DNA of 64,000 nt from Candidatus Sigynarchaeum calidifontis (GCA_030587475.2 JAUQYZ020000231.1:2948-66947); one strand, 5' to 3'; shown: positions 5,169 to 40,692, counted from the stretch's first letter. Numbers and translations are program-made. The notes: generated from the letters alone by a model not told the origin.

Positions 5169-5555
5169 TATCGATGCTTCCTTGCCGTTCTCTTGATCCC
5201 AAGACTCGCTTGGAGAAAATAAAGGTCACACCTTAGCCTTCGGATGTCGATTTACGCCTCCCGGGCGGGATGACCGAACTATACCATAACAATGGTTTCG
5301 GGTCAAATGGTGAAAGACCTAAAAGGGAAGGGCGTATACAATCAGAATTTTTCGTGGTTTAGGTAACGCGGGATGCCGGCTCGCCCTTGCTAGGGTAACA
5401 TGTATATGTGCTTTTAATTGCGCTGGCGGGGTCGTTTTCAATAGGTTTAAATATGCTGATAGACCAACAAACATCGATCAAATGTGTCCCGCCGTAGCAT
5501 ATCTTGACCTTATACGACCGAGACACGCCTCTAATCTAGATGAGCCCCGGTAGCC

Positions 5556-8500
5556 ATGGGTGAAGAGCCCGAGAAGAAACGTCGTCCGCGCGCCAAGCCG
5601 GCGGTGGATCAGCCCTCCTCCGAGAATAAAAAGCGGGAGCGAACCAAGCCAGCAAGTAATGGAAGCATAATGGGGGGAGAAAAGAAGAAGCGTGAGAAGG
5701 TGGAACAAGCAACCCAGGCCGAACCAGATAGTGACACGAAGGATACTTCCGTGATCAAGCAGGGTTCGATTGCTTCTTTCATGAGAAAGCGGACACAATT
5801 AGTCGGTTTCGATACAGGGCATTTCAAACACGTCCAATACGCCGTGGAATTCGTTGATAACAGTCTTGATGCCATTGAATCTTTCCACTGGAAGAATACC
5901 AACCCTGAAATTGCCTACCAGCTCGAATCCGGGCTCGAAAGTGGTCTCGACAAGCTCGTGAACCTAGAGTCCGAACTGATGGATGCCACGACCACGGTCG
6001 TGCATGGCTTGTCCCCTGACCTGGCCAACGTGTTCACGAGCATGGGCGAGTCTAACGGGGAAGCCGCTTCCGTTACAGGGCAGCAAAGCGCAGGCGCACA
6101 AGAAAGCATGGCCGAGGAATCCGAGGCAGAAGACACGCGAAAAGTGGAAGTCAAGACCAAGCTCGTCCAGCAAACTGATGTCGACCAGCGCATCGCCTCA
6201 ATTTCGGAAGCCATGGAGGCGCTCATCAACCCGTATATCGATCGCGTGCTCGCCGAGCCGATCATCATCATCAAGCTTAGCGAGGTCGAGGATCCCTCCC
6301 TCACGTTCCTCGATGAAAAGTCTGGAAAGCTGTACTGCTTCGAGATCTTCGATTCCGGCACGGGCATCGGGCAAGCTGACCTCGAGCGTTTCGGCACGTA
6401 CCTGGCATCGAGCAAGAGCGAGAAGCTCAAGCAGACGAGGGGTTCGCAAGGCTTCGGCAGCCCGTCAGCATTCAGTGACGCTCAGAATACGACGGGCAAA
6501 CCCATCCAGGTTATTTCAAAGCATTACAAGGCAGAAATGGGATACATCACCGAATTTTTCACCACGGGCGAGAACAAAAAGAGTTACAGCATCGAAACCC
6601 AACAAATCGACACGCCATTCCAGCACGGTACCTATGTTCGCCTCTATTATACGAACGTAAAATACAAGAGCGGGTTCGTCGACACGTATATTAAGCAAAC
6701 CGCCCTCATGAACTCGCACGTCAATATCATATTCATCGATCCCTATGGTGACACGCACGAATATCCACGACTGGTTAATGAATTTCCCGATGAGCCGAAA
6801 TATGCGAAGCCACACCCATCTTCGATAAATATCGGCGAATTCCAGGATATGCTTCGCACGACGACCTACTCGACCATCAAGCAGTTTCTCACCCACAGTT
6901 TCGTGCGCATTAGCGATAAAAACGCCCAAAATATCATCTACGGCGCGGAAGACGAGCTCCAAGACAAGGTCGGATTGCTGGAACTCTCGGATAAAGAATA
7001 TATTACAATACCGGAGAAGGTAGATGATTTTGTCTACTTGCTTAGCGAGGAAGAACGCGTTTTCGGGAAGTCAACGAAAGCCCGGAAGAAGATGGTCATT
7101 TACTTGCTGAATGTAGGTAAAACGGACGCCGTGGAAGCTTACAAGGACGTGTACAAGAAATATAAGGCAATTACCAGGGATATCGGGAAGATAGAAAACG
7201 AGCTGAAGAAAGCTATTACGGAGCGAGATTCGGCTGAGAAGAAAAAAGACAAGTCTGAAATCGCTAAGCGCATCAAGGAACTCGAAAAATCGAAGAAAGA
7301 CGCGGATAAGAGCAAGGACGATATTAAAAAGGAGTTCCACGAGTTTATAAAAGTACACAAAGACGCGTTCGAGGAAATCACTGATGAAAAAGTCGAAAGC
7401 GTAATGATGGAGAAATATAACACGATTTCGGTCTCCAGCACCTCGCCGAAGGACATTATGGAACTGCAAGTGAACGTTCTCTACAAGTATTTCACGGCGG
7501 AAAAATATCTTGCTCCGCCGACAGACACGGCCATTCCTGTCGGAGCAGACGTGCTCGAGTCTGTGCTAATTACGGAATTCGGTTTGCAGATTTCCAAGTT
7601 CGATTCATACTTCGCTGAGGACGAGGGTTCTACCATCGAAAATGATGTGGTCTCTCTCCCCAAGATGCAAAAGAAACTCAAGGAGGAGGCCGAGGAGAGC
7701 GATGATGAAGATCCAAAGTATCAAGCCTTGCTCAAGCTCAGCGAGGATGAATTTGTCCGCAAGATGGCGGCGATCCCTCTCATTAAATTCACCGAAATCA
7801 CTAATGACATCAAGAAAGATTTATACAAGGACTTGGTTGACTTTCCGGTCGACGTTTACAAGCAACCGGAGCTATATTCCGAGGAGATCGTGGAGGAGGA
7901 TCTCGATTTCGTTTCCGCGGTCACTCGCCCGCCGACTAGCGGGAAAGGACTCGCGTTCGTGGTCGAGGCGGCTATCGCCTATGGTAACAATGTCAAGCCA
8001 CCAGCAAAGCCTGCCGATGTCGTGTACCGGTTCGTCAACCGCACGCCCAAGCTCCGGGACAACGCGGACTGTGCCATCTGGAAGACCGTGAGCATGGTTA
8101 ATTGGAAAAATTATATGGTCGACACGTTCGACAACGGCATCCCGAAAGCCCCGATCCGCATATTCATCAACGTTTCGGGCCCGTTCGTGCACCTCATGTT
8201 CAAGTCTCAGTCAAAGCAGGCCCTCGCGGAAGACGAGAACTTGATCAAGGAGATAAAGCTCGCGCTGGAACAAGTCGGCCGGCGCTTGAAGGCATACATT
8301 TCCAAAAGGCAACGACACGCCGATTCGAAAAAGCGGGCCTCCCGATTTATCATGTTTGCCCCCCACGTCGCTCGTGCCTTGTACAATATCTTGAGCAAGG
8401 TACCTGAATACAAAGGAAACATCGCATCCCCCGACACGATCGAGGAACGAATCGTGATGGCAATCGGTGGTGCCCCAGCACGTGCACCATCCGTTACTGG

Positions 8501-9032
8501 ATTGAAACCGGTGACCCAGATCTCTGCAAAGCCTACCAGCGCACCCATTTCAGGCGTGAAAATGGCCACGACTCTGCCGATTCAAAAGTTGGCCGTGGCA
8601 GGGGCCGCGATACCGAGGCCTGTCGATGCCGCCACCAAGGGACCAGAGGCAAAGCCAGCGCTCGATAAAAAAATGCCCGTGCAGCAGAAACTCGGCGTGC
8701 CCGCGGCATCGCCAGCGCCCTCGACAAAGCCAGCAGCAGCGCCCGCGCAGTTGGCGGCCAGCGCGAAGCCGGTTGAGCAGCAAAAGCCCCCGGTTGCACC
8801 AGCGGCTGCAACAACTGCTGCAACAGCTTCACCGTTAAAACTAAATGAAGAGAATATACTAAAATGCATGCCGGAGGGAAAATACGTGAAGATTTCTTAC
8901 ATCATCAAGGCGCTCAACATCACGGACATCACCGAAGCACGGTTTTTGGAAGTCAAGCTCAAGACGCTCATCAATCAAGGAAAGCTTGAGCGAGAAATGC
9001 AGGATGGCAAGTCTTATTACAAGAAAAAATGA
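5556..9032 (+). CDS. top6B: DNA topoisomerase VI subunit B, unusually long (1158 aa) with several insertions
   Basis: GHKL N-box AVEFVDNSLDA, G1 box FEIFDSGTGIG, TRGSQGFG, an H2TH region HPSSINIGEFQDML..FLTHSFVRIS, and the transducer region LAFVVEAAIAYGNN, VYRFVNRTPKLRDNADCAIWK. Low-complexity insertions and tails are extra (see findings). Confidence 0.85.
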   Translation: MGEEPEKKRRPRAKPAVDQPSSENKKRERTKPASNGSIMGGEKKKREKVEQATQAEPDSDTKDTSVIKQGSIASFMRKRTQLVGFDTGHFKHVQYAVEFVDNSLDAIESFHWKNTNPEIAYQLESGLESGLDKLVNLESELMDATTTVVHGLSPDLANVFTSMGESNGEAASVTGQQSAGAQESMAEESEAEDTRKVEVKTKLVQQTDVDQRIASISEAMEALINPYIDRVLAEPIIIIKLSEVEDPSLTFLDEKSGKLYCFEIFDSGTGIGQADLERFGTYLASSKSEKLKQTRGSQGFGSPSAFSDAQNTTGKPIQVISKHYKAEMGYITEFFTTGENKKSYSIETQQIDTPFQHGTYVRLYYTNVKYKSGFVDTYIKQTALMNSHVNIIFIDPYGDTHEYPRLVNEFPDEPKYAKPHPSSINIGEFQDMLRTTTYSTIKQFLTHSFVRISDKNAQNIIYGAEDELQDKVGLLELSDKEYITIPEKVDDFVYLLSEEERVFGKSTKARKKMVIYLLNVGKTDAVEAYKDVYKKYKAITRDIGKIENELKKAITERDSAEKKKDKSEIAKRIKELEKSKKDADKSKDDIKKEFHEFIKVHKDAFEEITDEKVESVMMEKYNTISVSSTSPKDIMELQVNVLYKYFTAEKYLAPPTDTAIPVGADVLESVLITEFGLQISKFDSYFAEDEGSTIENDVVSLPKMQKKLKEEAEESDDEDPKYQALLKLSEDEFVRKMAAIPLIKFTEITNDIKKDLYKDLVDFPVDVYKQPELYSEEIVEEDLDFVSAVTRPPTSGKGLAFVVEAAIAYGNNVKPPAKPADVVYRFVNRTPKLRDNADCAIWKTVSMVNWKNYMVDTFDNGIPKAPIRIFINVSGPFVHLMFKSQSKQALAEDENLIKEIKLALEQVGRRLKAYISKRQRHADSKKRASRFIMFAPHVARALYNILSKVPEYKGNIASPDTIEERIVMAIGGAPARAPSVTGLKPVTQISAKPTSAPISGVKMATTLPIQKLAVAGAAIPRPVDAATKGPEAKPALDKKMPVQQKLGVPAASPAPSTKPAAAPAQLAASAKPVEQQKPPVAPAAATTAATASPLKLNEENILKCMPEGKYVKISYIIKALNITDITEARFLEVKLKTLINQGKLEREMQDGKSYYKKK

Positions 9033-10282
9033 ATTTACATGCTTTATTTCGCAGAGAATTGAACATGTGCGCAAAAAAACAAGCAGCAGTTGGGCCGTCG
9101 ATCGACCCTGCGATCCGGAAGGAGAGAGCAATCAAGGTGCTGCGCGATGCTTTCGAGGAAAAATTAAAAGAAACTACCCAGCTGTCATACCAGCTTCCCG
9201 AGGGAGCGCTGGTTGTCGATGAAATCCCGGCGGATGTCGCGTTCAAGAAGACGGTCGAGATCGCCAAGAGCTTGTACGACCAAATCATGGAATCCGGCCG
9301 GTTCGGTCTAGATGTTCCATCACGCAGCTCGACCAACATCATCTATGACGAGAATAACGACCTTCTACTTTTAGGTGATAAAAAAAACCGGAAATGGTTC
9401 CATTCCTTAACTAGCGTCGAGGACATGACCCAACTCATCAAGACCCTCGAGATAGTGAATCAATTACTGGAGAAACGGATCCACGCAACAAAGCGTGAGG
9501 TTTTTTACAACGACGTGAATCTTTTCAAGGAACAAGTGAACTCGGACAATTGCATCGAAGACTTGTCAACCATTCTCAACACGATCCGGAACTCGACGAA
9601 CATCGTCGCATCGGCCGTGGGCAAGGCAGTTGGCAGGTTGCGGATTCGAGACCAGTCGGACATCATCGATCTCGAAGCAATGGGCTCGGGAGGCTGGGCG
9701 ATCACGCCTTTTCTCGACAACGTGGAAATCATCGAATCCGACGCCGAATTTGTCCTCGTGATCGAAAAGGATGCCGCTGCAATGCGGTTGAGCGAGGCTA
9801 AATGGTGGAAGGAATATCCTTGCATCATCATATCGGGGCGTGGTGCCGCCGACATCGCGACACGCATGTTTTTGAAGCGGATCAACAAAGTTCTAAACAT
9901 TCCCACCTTTTGCCTAGTCGATTCCGACCCGTATGGTCACTACATCTATTCCATCTACTTGCGCGGCTCCAAGAAGCTGTCCTACGAGTCACCCTTCCTC
10001 GCCACGCCGAATATCCATTTACTTGGCGTGTTGACACGTGACCTCGATTCCTATAATGTCCCGAAAGAATGTCGCATCCCTATGAACAAGACCGACATCA
10101 AGCGGTGCCAGGAGATGCTTAACGAAAGCTTTGTCCAAAAAAATCCTAAATGGGTCGCCGACCTCGAGTTAATGATGAAGATCAAGGAAAAAGCCGAGAT
10201 ACAGAGCCTCAGCGCCCACGGATTCGAGTATCTTACTTCTGAATATTTACCATCTAAGATCGCCACAGCCGACTGGATTTGA
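9029..10282 (+). CDS. top6A: DNA topoisomerase VI subunit A (Spo11 family)
   Basis: KREVFYND (catalytic Tyr region), the Toprim Glu in FVLVIEKDAA, and DxD in CLVDSDPYGHYIYSIY. ATGA overlap with the top6B stop. An alternative start is the Met of MCAKKQ, 12 codons in. Confidence 0.9.
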   Translation: MNLHALFRRELNMCAKKQAAVGPSIDPAIRKERAIKVLRDAFEEKLKETTQLSYQLPEGALVVDEIPADVAFKKTVEIAKSLYDQIMESGRFGLDVPSRSSTNIIYDENNDLLLLGDKKNRKWFHSLTSVEDMTQLIKTLEIVNQLLEKRIHATKREVFYNDVNLFKEQVNSDNCIEDLSTILNTIRNSTNIVASAVGKAVGRLRIRDQSDIIDLEAMGSGGWAITPFLDNVEIIESDAEFVLVIEKDAAAMRLSEAKWWKEYPCIIISGRGAADIATRMFLKRINKVLNIPTFCLVDSDPYGHYIYSIYLRGSKKLSYESPFLATPNIHLLGVLTRDLDSYNVPKECRIPMNKTDIKRCQEMLNESFVQKNPKWVADLELMMKIKEKAEIQSLSAHGFEYLTSEYLPSKIATADWI

Positions 10283-10290
10283 CCCAAACC

Positions 10291-10833
10291 ATGAAAGTGT
10301 TTCGATTGAGCGATGGCCGCATCGTCCAAATCATCGATAAGGACAAGATACAGAGATGGGACCCGGCAACCCCTGCCTTGTTTGTCAATTACATCCTGGA
10401 CAAGAAGATCGAATCATATGGTTCTTCAAAAGATCAAGCCGAGATCCGTGCCTATTTAAACGAGATACTCGAGGAAATTGCCGTTCCCAAGCTCACGAGC
10501 GCCTTGAAGTCCCCCGATCCAAACGTGCGGCTCACGATCGCCAAGAACCTGGTCGACATATCTAAGAAAAAAGCAGATATGGTCAAGGGTGTCTTGAGCT
10601 TCTTGCAAGAAGCGGAGAAGAACGAGACCGAAACGGATATCAAGGCAAACATCGCCCAAGTCTTGAAAAATTATGACAAGGCGGTGAAGCGGAAGCAATA
10701 CGAGGCCAAGCGAAAGAAAATGAAAGAACTGGACGAAAGGCTCAAGGCGGGCAAGATCACGGCTGATGAATACGTGAAGGAACGGAAGGAATTCCTGCTC
10801 CTGGGCGTGGAAACGGGCGCAGAGGAGGAATGA
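10291..10833 (+). CDS. HEAT-repeat-like / SHOCT-motif protein
   Basis: LKSPDPNVRLTIAKNLVDIS is a HEAT/PBS-lyase-type repeat. A KE-rich helix follows. C-terminal LDERLKAGKITADEYVKERKEFLLL matches the SHOCT motif. Start is ATG 10291, or TTG 10279 overlapping the top6A stop (TTGA). Confidence 0.7.
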   Translation: MKVFRLSDGRIVQIIDKDKIQRWDPATPALFVNYILDKKIESYGSSKDQAEIRAYLNEILEEIAVPKLTSALKSPDPNVRLTIAKNLVDISKKKADMVKGVLSFLQEAEKNETETDIKANIAQVLKNYDKAVKRKQYEAKRKKMKELDERLKAGKITADEYVKERKEFLLLGVETGAEEE

Positions 10834-10846
10834 AGGGGGGAAATAG

Positions 10847-11692
10847 TTGATCTACGGCATTTCGATCATTACGACCACCGGATATCCGTATTACAACAAA
10901 GATTTCGCCCTCGAGCCGCGGAACACGGTATTGAAAAACCTTTTTTTTAATTACTCGAAAAACGTGATTCAAACAGCTAACGAGAACGAATTTGAGCTCG
11001 TCGCGGGCCTGGTATCAGCCTTGTTCAATTTCTCGGGTGCCCAGAATCGCCCGATCCAGGAGCTCGTGTACACGCGTCCCGAGTACCAGATCGAGAATCT
11101 CCTGGATGGTCAAACCAAGAACGAGACCGGGACGCTCATAACAATTCGATGCGAGTATTACAGCATCAAAGCAGCTGTGAAACGAAAACTCGACTACATC
11201 TACGAGAAAATGATAAAGCCACTCGAGCCGCTGGGGGACAAATCGAAGCTCGCGCCCTCGGAGGAGAAGACGATACAAGATATCTTGTTGAATATGCCGT
11301 CCAAGCAGATTATTCGAGCACACTCGAAGGAATTAGATAATTATCTCAAGACCTTCATCAAGGACAATAAAAGTTATGGTATAAAAGCCATCGCGATCGC
11401 GAGCGCCGATTTGACGCTGTTAAAGACCGTGGGGATCATCGACGAGGACTTGCAAAAGCTATTGCGCGTGGTGGAATGCCCCGAGGTCGATCCCTTAGCG
11501 TGGAAGTTCCGCCAAGCATGGACATTTGACAACCAGCAAGTCACCCTCGTTTTCGTGAACTCGGCGTTCAACGTGGAGCATGACACGCTCAAGGAACCGC
11601 TATATTACATCATTTTGTGCGACGCGTATTCTGCTATCGGTGAGCTACCGCGCAGACTCTTCATGGACATAAACGCGATAATCGAAAAATGA
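10847..11692 (+). CDS. Tandem longin-like / roadblock (LC7/MglB)-like domain protein
   Basis: TTG start preceded by AGGGGGG 6 nt upstream. N-terminal IYGISIITTTGYPYY...LVAGLVSALFNFS...LITIRCEYY...KLDYIYEKM fits a longin-type pattern. C-terminal IKAIAIASADLTLLKTVG...VTLVFVNS...LYYIILCD...GELPRRLFMDINAII is roadblock-like. Confidence 0.65.
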   Translation: MIYGISIITTTGYPYYNKDFALEPRNTVLKNLFFNYSKNVIQTANENEFELVAGLVSALFNFSGAQNRPIQELVYTRPEYQIENLLDGQTKNETGTLITIRCEYYSIKAAVKRKLDYIYEKMIKPLEPLGDKSKLAPSEEKTIQDILLNMPSKQIIRAHSKELDNYLKTFIKDNKSYGIKAIAIASADLTLLKTVGIIDEDLQKLLRVVECPEVDPLAWKFRQAWTFDNQQVTLVFVNSAFNVEHDTLKEPLYYIILCDAYSAIGELPRRLFMDINAIIEK

Positions 11693-11703
11693 GCATCCAT
11701 TCA

Positions 11704-12417
11704 TTACGTATTCCTGAAGATCTCGACGATGCCGTTACCTTTTATCTTGATCCCGCGGGAAGCGAACTGCTTGAGCACGTCGGGGTGTTCCTGGGACACT
11801 AGAACGATTGTTTTGCCGAATGTTGAATTGGCCTCCTTGAAAGACTCGAAAAGTTCCATTCGGCCATCGCTATCGAGGTTCTGCTCAGGTTCATCAGCAA
11901 AAATGATGTCCCGATCCATGGCCAGTGCCCGCGTGAGCAAGGCGCGTTGTTGCTGCCCGATGCTGCACGTGTTCGGGTGTTTCTCGAGGATATCCTCGAT
12001 TTTGAACCGGTTGACGTAGATATCGAGCCGTTTAACGATATCCTCGGGATTGCTCCTTTCTTGATTGGAGCCATCCATACCACCTCGCTCATAAGAGAGA
12101 TAAAATGGCAAGAGTATGTTTTCGCGGATCGTGAGTTCCGGGAGAAGAACCTGGTATTGTGAAACGAAACCGAAGTTCATCGCTTGCCACGTGACGATCC
12201 CCTTGAATGGTTGCATGATTCCGCTCATGATTTTAAGGAGGCTTGTCTTGCCACTGCCATTTGGCCCGGATATGGACAAGAACTCGCCCTCAAGCACTTC
12301 GAGGCTCACGTCGCTCAATGGCGTGAAGATCTTCTTTCCCTTGAATGGCCCCGAATTCCGGTCCACCTTGTAGGAGATCGTAACGTGGTCTAGTTTAATT
12401 AACCATCTTCGCGACAT
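11704..12417 (-). CDS. ABC transporter ATP-binding protein (MacB/LolD-like)
   Basis: Walker A GPNGSGKTSLLKIMSG, signature CSIGQQQRALLTRAL, Walker B IIFADEPEQNLD. It overlaps the upstream permease gene by 23 nt. Confidence 0.9.
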   Translation of the reverse strand: MSRRWLIKLDHVTISYKVDRNSGPFKGKKIFTPLSDVSLEVLEGEFLSISGPNGSGKTSLLKIMSGIMQPFKGIVTWQAMNFGFVSQYQVLLPELTIRENILLPFYLSYERGGMDGSNQERSNPEDIVKRLDIYVNRFKIEDILEKHPNTCSIGQQQRALLTRALAMDRDIIFADEPEQNLDSDGRMELFESFKEANSTFGKTIVLVSQEHPDVLKQFASRGIKIKGNGIVEIFRNT

Positions 12418-40131: not shown

Positions 40132-40692
40132 TTATTTCAAGAGTCGCATGACGCGGCGTAAATTCTTGTCGATAATGCCAGCCACGCTACCAGTAATTGT
40201 TTTATGGATTACTTGAGCTTGCTTCCTCGCCCGTTCGAATCTTTCCCTAACGATTTCAATTGGTTCGCTGAAGATCGTGTGATACTTGCTCCTTTTGCCT
40301 ATTTCCTTTTCCAACTCATCTGCAAAACTTTCAAATTTACTCACGTTCGAGAAATCGCCCTTTTCAACGTAATCAGCATACATGGACTCGAACCGCTGCC
40401 GGATGTGCGAAAGAAACGTTCGTATCTCGCCCCGGCTAACCTCGTTGGTAGCGACGATAACGAAATACAACTTGCCCTCGAGCGTGTAATGGATAGACAC
40501 GTTCTCGAGCTGGATAAGCTGGATTTTCTGGCCAGTCATCTCGGTCGAAAAGGCATCTATCGCCGTTAAAAAACCCCCGATCATGTCCTTGTTGATCGGA
40601 TTCGGTAGCGGCATAAATTCTTGCTCGAATATCAAGATGCCCGACGTCTCGATGATGAACACGTCGTGCAAGCCAGCTGCAAGGTCGCTCAT
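40132..40692 (-). CDS. Longin/roadblock-like domain protein
   Basis: VFIIETSGILIFEQEF...MIGGFLTAIDAFSTEM...IQLIQLENVSIHYTLEGKLYFVIVATNE...IRTFLSHIRQRFESMY fits a Mon1/Fuzzy-type longin pattern, followed by a helical tail. A TATA-like element lies 21-34 nt upstream of the ATG. Confidence 0.65.
   Translation of the reverse strand: MSDLAAGLHDVFIIETSGILIFEQEFMPLPNPINKDMIGGFLTAIDAFSTEMTGQKIQLIQLENVSIHYTLEGKLYFVIVATNEVSRGEIRTFLSHIRQRFESMYADYVEKGDFSNVSKFESFADELEKEIGKRSKYHTIFSEPIEIVRERFERARKQAQVIHKTITGSVAGIIDKNLRRVMRLLK

Follow-up and report, generated by a model that had tools for sequence, protein, structure and literature searches.

Does the type IIB DNA topoisomerase VI (Topo VI) of archaea work alone, or has it acquired dedicated partner proteins? 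The archaeal enzyme serves as the model for type IIB topoisomerases as a whole and for Spo11, and it is regarded as self-sufficient. It is treated as a plain A2B2 heterotetramer (PMC11894792). The accessory proteins of the family, RHL1 and BIN4 as well as the Spo11 partners, are regarded as a eukaryotic addition. RHL1 and BIN4 have been reported to be absent from archaea (PMC11302465) and their cores are beta-barrel dimerisation modules like those of CTF8/DCC1 (PMC9665070). Brinkmeier et al. 2022 (PMC9665070) proposed that helices of TopoVIA and TopoVIB specific to Asgard archaea and eukaryotes are partner interfaces, with no archaeal partner being described. The question is raised here by a stretch of 64,000 nucleotides (nt) from Candidatus Sigynarchaeum calidifontis (GCA_030587475.2, JAUQYZ020000231.1:2948-66947; hereafter the window), in which the Topo VI genes top6B and top6A are followed closely by two further open reading frames, ORF3 and ORF4. 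A prediction made from the sequence had taken the four genes for one transcript and the products of both extra genes for candidate accessory or regulatory subunits. The comparative evidence presented below points to one conserved top6B-top6A-ORF3 operon in Lokiarchaeia and Sigynarchaeota-like Asgard archaea, in which ORF3 would be a Topo VI partner and ORF4 a passenger, a reading that we give an even chance of being right. In the literature searched, which was limited, neither ORF3 nor ORF4 is described, and we saw no mention of a third gene in the top6 operons of Asgard archaea.

ORF3 is kept directly behind top6A

The cluster (5556-11692) consists of four tightly spaced, co-directional genes on the + strand, all of them present at the coordinates stated beforehand apart from the start of top6A:

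5556-9032, + strand: top6B, 1158 amino acids (aa); Pfam Topo-VIb_trans 3e-34, NCBIfam PRK04184 5e-100
9065-10282, + strand: top6A, 405 aa from the conserved ATG at 9065; the longest open reading frame starts at 9029
10291-10833, + strand: ORF3, 180 aa, isoelectric point (pI) 9.0; candidate Topo VI partner
10847-11692, + strand: ORF4, 281 aa, TTG start, two-domain protein

Homologues of ORF3 fell into about 55 clusters, 16 of them near the window and 40 more retrieved with the most distant initial match as seed, and all came from metagenome-assembled genomes of Lokiarchaeota, Promethearchaeota and Sigynarchaeota, from a Harpocratesius metagenome-assembled genome and from two cultured species, Lokiarchaeum ossiferum and Promethearchaeum syntrophicum; a scan of a genome collection found at least two species representatives. 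Fifteen distinct ORF3 loci were compared, namely the window (identical to L097), L001/L002, L003, L004, L005, L006, L007, L008, L009, L014, L090, L091, L092, L093/L094 and L095/L096. ORF3 lies directly 3' of top6A in all 15, from the Sigynarchaeota-like clade to L. ossiferum and P. syntrophicum, and its start falls between -4 and +27 nt of the top6A stop in every one of them. In the window's clade 5-9 nt separate the top6A stop from the ORF3 start; in Lokiarchaeia the two genes abut or overlap (TAAATG, ATGA, TTGA), with one case of 27 nt. Across this span the identity of ORF3 goes down to 37-41% and that of Top6A to 57-66%.

Both flanks of this junction vary. The upstream neighbour of top6B is a membrane protein of 491-503 aa in the window's clade and DFP in Lokiarchaeia, and what follows ORF3 comes in six different arrangements:

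ORF4, then an ABC ATPase gene
an ORF4-like gene, then a longin-like gene, then LeuRS
one or two longin-like genes, then LeuRS
a 291-aa membrane protein gene
LeuRS directly
a 137-aa gene, then a LeuA-like gene

The slot behind ORF3 is thus evolutionarily fluid. The preservation of the ORF3-top6A junction while both flanks vary is strong comparative evidence for a conserved top6B-top6A-ORF3 operon, and the pattern is as would be expected for a selected, translationally coupled gene pair. The proposal that both extra genes might stay adjacent to the top6 genes in related genomes therefore holds for ORF3, which adjoins top6A in 15 of 15 loci, and does not hold generally for ORF4, which is linked to them only in two clades.

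Three loci deserve a separate word. The gene after ORF3 in P. syntrophicum (L008:9664-10539) encodes an unrelated 291-aa protein that looks multi-pass membrane-like by sequence, and the one at L095:2782-3195 encodes a 137-aa protein without a family match. A top6B-top6A-ORF3-ORF4 block 54-69% identical to that of the window is also present on a contig labelled 'Candidatus Bathyarchaeota archaeon' (L006, WJJB01000373.1), a name that probably reflects an error in binning or taxonomy.

The Topo VI subunits and the lineage-specific parts of Top6B

Top6B scores 335 bits against PRK04184 (cut-off 274), and in its alignment to the Methanosarcina mazei subunit (2Q2E_B) the motifs vDNsLDA, DsGtGIg, RGsQGfG and SqSKqA are present, with the N, G1 and G2 boxes of the GHKL domain and the switch-lysine region retained; profiles and motif alignment together identify it as subunit B of a type IIB DNA topoisomerase VI. 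The top6A product matches Pfam TP6A_N (8e-18) and TOP6A-Spo11_Toprim (3e-58) and aligns end to end with Sulfolobus shibatae Top6A (2ZBK_A, 2e-62). It contains RevFY (the catalytic R..FY), viEKDA (the Toprim E) and DsDPYG (the DxD), that is, the 5Y-CAP catalytic tyrosine and the Toprim E and DxD by which subunit A is recognised. Since the catalytic motifs of both Top6A and Top6B are kept, the Topo VI of the window looks catalytically competent.

The locus shares with the canonical top6B-top6A pairs of Sulfolobus and Methanosarcina the genes, their order and close spacing, and the GHKL, transducer, 5Y-CAP and Toprim motifs. It differs from them in having a third gene apparently coupled to top6A and a Top6B that, at 1158 aa, has roughly double the canonical length and carries two extensions and three insertions. 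Measured against M. mazei Top6B, residues 1-67 form the N-terminal extension, which is basic. The insertions comprise an acidic one in the GHKL domain (110-252), one of 177 aa rich in K and E (464-640) and another acidic one (668-779). The C-terminal extension, 200 aa long, combines an Ala/Pro-rich linker with a basic domain (about 65 aa) for which we found no Pfam match. The two acidic insertions have a pI of about 4.2. A Top6B of 1114-1187 aa is encoded in all related loci whose contig reaches far enough.

ORF3 is a HEAT-like protein with a nearly invariant basic helix

The AlphaFold2 model of ORF3, with a predicted local distance difference test (pLDDT) score of 90, indicates that it is a real, well-folded protein. 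The model opens with an N-terminal beta-hairpin, continues with a HEAT/ARM-like helical repeat core (about 46-112) and a long helix (113-152), and closes with a short helix and then an acidic tail; apart from the hairpin it is all-alpha, and the core holds only about two to three repeats. Three results bear out the HEAT assignment made in the original prediction and justify calling the protein HEAT-like: the family profile matches the alphaRep HEAT-like repeats at 4e-8, Foldseek returns alphaRep/armadillo structures with a probability of about 1.0 but an expect value (E) of about 2e-2, and the P. syntrophicum (MK-D1) orthologue scores above the Pfam HEAT cut-off (27.2 vs 23.5). The window protein itself stays just under the Pfam cut-offs (24.4 vs 27.7 for HEAT_2 and 21.8 vs 23.5 for HEAT). 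The SHOCT domain (PF09851) that had also been assigned to ORF3 was not upheld, with 15.5 bits and E 0.014 for the isolated C-terminus against a cut-off of 27, no match on the whole protein and none in the distant homologue P0033.

The long helix is nearly invariant and K/R-rich (13 K/R). Comparison of 25 diverse family members gave 17 invariant positions, among them F4, Q13, Y55, N127, Y128, K140 and R141, and these are concentrated in the long helix. We also considered a defence-system role and rejected it, PADLOC giving a 13-bit AbiK match for ORF3 and none for ORF4, and a weak NCBIfam match to Avs3b (0.016) being discounted.

A putative third component of Topo VI

We hypothesise that translation of ORF3 is coupled to the end of top6A and that its small product most likely serves Topo VI as a non-catalytic partner. 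Its HEAT/ARM-like core would dock on Top6A or on one of the acidic, lineage-specific insertions of the double-length Top6B, while the K/R-rich helix would contact DNA or these same acidic insertions; such contacts could tune the capture of DNA crossings, or recruit or assemble the enzyme. The accessory-subunit idea of the original prediction is thus plausible for ORF3, whose linkage is conserved, and weak for ORF4, which is mostly found beside LeuRS.

In a related proposal ORF3 would help the large, insertion-rich Top6B to assemble or to remain stable, as a chaperone does, or would be a DNA-binding HEAT-like protein of the AlkD kind that acts on DNA beside Topo VI rather than as a stable subunit of it. 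ORF3 always occurs with a Top6B of 1114-1187 aa in the loci examined, the two acidic Top6B insertions and the strongly basic invariant helix of ORF3 have opposite character, and the ORF3 profile gives weak matches to AlkD2-type HEAT-like repeats (E 0.026). However, the co-occurrence with the long Top6B was seen only where ORF3 was the search bait, and the similarity to AlkD is below significance, and we regard this proposal as highly improbable.

A partnership also has to be weighed against the absence of any functional link, in which case ORF3 and ORF4 would simply ride in or adjoin the top6 operon, kept there by ancestry and by a coupled junction that is hard to break. Several points speak for such an explanation and count against ORF3 as a partner. 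Archaeal operons often mix functionally unrelated genes, and HEAT repeats are generic interaction modules that give no pointer to topoisomerases. All loci come from related lineages within a single region of the Asgard tree, where some of the conservation is accounted for by inheritance, and synteny within each group is much wider than the cluster. Among the homologues, which are 137-210 aa long, we saw no fusion joining ORF3 to either Topo VI subunit. The homologues were gathered by word-indexed searches, which are not exhaustive, and the confinement of ORF3 to these lineages holds to that extent. A search of sequencing runs returned one DNA run, from a hot-spring metagenome, with 5% of the window's words and zero RNA runs, and three metatranscriptomes from the study of the relative L005 gave only spurious pieces of 19-33 nt. 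Against the absence of a link stands the junction itself, which survived at least six reshuffles of its neighbours and the divergence of ORF3 to 37-41% identity. Moreover, ORF3 stayed with top6A where the ORF4-like and longin-like genes stayed with LeuRS and left the cluster (L095/L096). We consider a purely positional association unlikely, though one to be taken seriously.

If ORF3 is a partner of Topo VI, its closest counterparts in concept would be RHL1 and BIN4 (MIDGET) of Topo VI in plants and other eukaryotes, which are small, non-catalytic, capable of binding DNA, co-distributed with Topo VI and proposed to be parts of the holoenzyme (PMC9665070, PMC11302465). Compared by described fold, they differ in having beta-barrel cores, whereas ORF3 consists of HEAT-like helices and ORF4 is predicted to be alpha/beta and roadblock-like; because neither resembles the RHL1/BIN4 cores, the likeness is one of role and not of family. 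The link of RHL1 and BIN4 to Topo VI comes from genetics, yeast two-hybrid assays and co-immunoprecipitation, whereas that of ORF3 and ORF4 is one of gene order only. The partners of Spo11 (Rec102, Rec104 and Ski8; TOPOVIBL, REC114 and MEI4) are likewise extra non-enzymatic proteins on a Top6A-type subunit, but they have unrelated folds and a meiotic setting, and searches of the PDB revealed no sequence or fold similarity between them and ORF3 or ORF4.

A conserved and coupled third gene would, if our reading is true, mean that Topo VI gained dedicated partners within archaea too, and partnership with ORF3 could help to explain the double-size Top6B of Lokiarchaeia. The idea is directly testable, since the cultured L. 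ossiferum and P. syntrophicum both carry ORF3 orthologues. Should the link prove merely positional, the analysis would still name a well-folded, Asgard-specific HEAT family and correct the Topo VI-specific reading of ORF4. More tentatively, we suggest as a possibility that in Lokiarchaeia and Sigynarchaeia Topo VI departs from the textbook A2B2 form and works with three kinds of subunit. A dedicated HEAT-repeat 'C' subunit, translationally coupled to Top6A, would bind the enzyme, possibly through the acidic Top6B insertions, and control DNA engagement via its invariant basic helix. This would be an archaeal, independently evolved counterpart of the RHL1/BIN4 layer of eukaryotes, in Asgard archaea, to which eukaryotes are related.

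The ORF4 family is predicted to be roadblock-like and lies mostly beside LeuRS

The AlphaFold2 model of ORF4 has a mean pLDDT of 66, with residues 1-106 below 50 and the C-terminal half mostly at 77-97. In the model the C-terminal half (about 137-281) follows the order alpha-beta-beta-alpha-beta-beta-beta(-alpha), which fits a roadblock/LC7 domain, and the N-terminal half shows, at low confidence, beta-beta-alpha-beta-beta-alpha, which is compatible with a longin domain but one strand short. The Foldseek matches include MglB (6H5B_C, probability 0.99), LAMTOR (6B9X_B, 0.97) and MK-D1 Roadblock2 (9JQ8_B, 0.99), and with the Nprl subunits included they span probabilities of 0.96-0.99 and template modelling scores on the target of 0.47-0.56, at E of about 1e-2. 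Sequence searches were negative: 16 family members gave no Pfam match, Robl_LC7 and Longin included, even at E up to 10, and neither ORF4 by itself nor its family as a whole gave a sequence match in NCBIfam or the PDB. A comparison of its two halves gave no signal of internal duplication, and the N-terminal half has no profile similarity to the longin-like neighbour family described below. Of the 'tandem longin/roadblock' architecture first proposed for ORF4, the roadblock part is thus a reasonable description of the predicted fold of the C-terminal half, and longin is only a possibility for the N-terminal half.

Asgard archaea have an expanded set of roadblock and longin proteins (PMC10933270). 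As predicted, the C-terminal half of ORF4 would resemble MglB, LAMTOR/Ragulator, the Rag C-terminal domains, Nprl2/3 and MK-D1 Roadblock2 in the order of its strands and helices, and its best Foldseek probabilities are to these proteins. It differs from them as a two-domain protein of 281 aa that lacks a Pfam Robl_LC7 or Longin match and has no adjacent GTPase gene in the window.

An exhaustive profile search found 41 representatives of the ORF4 family, in Lokiarchaeia and Helarchaeota, full-length in Lokiarchaeia at 280-296 aa (about 285 aa) and as weak paralogues in Helarchaeota. A metagenome scan seeded with six distant members yielded 80 loci (L010-L089), most of which form one large clade. 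There is no top6 gene within 7 kb in 79 of the 80, LeuRS lies immediately 5' on the same strand in 61, and in 13 a longin-like gene of 195-200 aa separates LeuRS from the ORF4-like gene. A convergent gene for triose-phosphate isomerase (TPI) usually follows, and the typical order is LeuRS, in some loci a longin-like gene, then the ORF4-like gene and, facing it, TPI. The cluster of LeuRS, longin-like and ORF4-like genes is conserved, for example at L011:3439-7864 and L028:6275-7864 and also at L093:7647-11962, and the longin-like proteins of 195-200 aa carry a C-terminal part with CxxC...H. ORF4 showed no homology, by BLASTP or hhalign, to this longin-like family or to the 291-aa protein of P. 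syntrophicum.

Behind ORF3, an ORF4 or ORF4-like gene is found only in the window's clade (L001-L003, L005 and L006) and in one Lokiarchaeia subclade (L093/L094, L014 and probably L017), where the order is top6B-top6A-ORF3-ORF4-like-longin-like followed by a convergent LeuRS. The four-gene arrangement appears to be old, since it recurs in this distant subclade with an ORF4-like protein only about 30% identical to ORF4 of the window. The order is probably ancestral, with repeated breaks between ORF3 and ORF4 later on. Where the longin-like or ORF4-like genes are linked to top6, a convergent LeuRS comes immediately behind them, and its adjacency to them therefore survives a change of orientation.

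These data bear on the full form of the original prediction, in which ORF3 and ORF4 are both accessory or regulatory subunits of a four-component Topo VI. Such a complex would be compatible with the contiguity of the genes, with gaps of 8 and 13 nt before ORF3 and ORF4, with the recurrence of the order in the window's clade and in the distant L093/L094 and L014 subclade, and with the slot behind ORF3 being often longin-like elsewhere (L004, L007, L009, L090, L092). It is difficult to reconcile with the 79 metagenome loci in which the family has LeuRS neighbours instead of top6 genes, and with P. syntrophicum-type genomes, in which the fourth gene is missing or encodes an unrelated membrane protein. 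The spacers between ORF3 and the fourth gene are also longer (7-102 nt) and so leave room for separate promoters, and the known roles of roadblock and longin proteins are as scaffolds or regulators for small GTPases rather than as subunits of DNA enzymes (PMC10933270; PDB matches). We find a four-component Topo VI improbable and prefer the reading in which ORF3 is the partner. ORF4 would then share the transcript in the window's lineage through a retained ancestral gene order, and is probably not a dedicated Topo VI subunit.

The clustering of LeuRS with a roadblock-like gene recalls, speculatively, the link of eukaryotic LeuRS to the Rag GTPases and Ragulator. A bolder extension would be that an ancestral top6B-top6A-ORF3-roadblock-longin-LeuRS block couples chromosome decatenation to signalling of a GTPase or nutrient type. 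Genes for small GTPases of the Arf/Ras family occur a few kb 3' of the top6 cluster at L003:15636-16187 and L095:5581-6270, in unrelated arrangements, and may be there by chance, as Asgard genomes carry many. Elsewhere in the window, a 186-aa protein (40132-40692, - strand) matches Pfam Longin at 1.3e-5 (25.4 bits against a cut-off of 26.2), gives a weak Clat_adaptor_s match too and shows weak similarity (hmmsearch 1.4e-5) to the longin-like proteins encoded next to ORF4-like genes in other genomes.

Gene boundaries and transcription signals

Further features were located around and within the cluster:

5446-5453, + strand: TATA-like TTTAAATA, candidate operon promoter element, read from sequence
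10834-10840, + strand: AGGGGGG, putative Shine-Dalgarno-like element 7-13 nt 5' of the ORF4 TTG
11704-12417, - strand: convergent ABC-type ATPase gene (Pfam ABC_tran 1e-23), marking the 3' end of the cluster

The top6B stop and the top6A start had been described as overlapping, and the ATGA in question does exist at 9029-9032. The conserved start of top6A is nevertheless the ATG at 9065. The 12 codons that a start at 9029 would add (MNLHALFRRELN) are unconserved, and the closest relative, L005, whose Top6A is 93% identical, has no ATG at the overlapping position. Alignment places the start common to five relatives, ATGTGTGC (MCAKK), at 9065 of the window, and a public record with an identical ORF3 annotates Top6A as 405 aa. 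Given the conserved MCAKK start, the missing ATG in L005 and the public 405-aa call, the junction is most likely a gap of 32 nt rather than an overlap.

The remaining junctions were found as described. The top6A stop TGA (10280-10282) is followed 8 nt on by ATG 10291, and TTG 10279 overlaps the stop as TTGA; the start of ORF3 is ATG 10291, where every homologue opens with MK/EVF. ORF3 stops at 10831-10833 and is followed by AGGGGGG and by TTG 10847, with a gap of 13 nt. L005 retains the AGGGGGG and has a TTG at the same codon, and more distant relatives have ATG there, which agrees with the TTG start of ORF4. Between the ORF4 stop and the convergent ABC-ATPase gene there are 11 nt.

Upstream the cluster is bounded by a divergent intergenic region of 387 nt, inside which TTTAAATA lies about 100 nt 5' of the top6B ATG and could serve as promoter for the entire cluster. 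The junctions had been said to lack T-tracts and AT-rich promoter-like elements. The first part stands, as no + strand run of five or more T occurs in any junction; as to the second, a TATA-like GAATATTTACC is present at about 10241-10251, within the 3' end of top6A, but is unconserved in relatives. Its lack of conservation counts against a conserved internal promoter before ORF3, a reading that we rejected. The spacing of the junctions and the absence of T-runs are consistent with a single four-gene transcript. Within the genes, a T8 run lies inside ORF4 (10941-10948, + strand), spanning the codons of the invariant Phe33-Phe34, and a T6 run inside top6A (9501-9506, + strand); by sequence, both resemble archaeal terminators.

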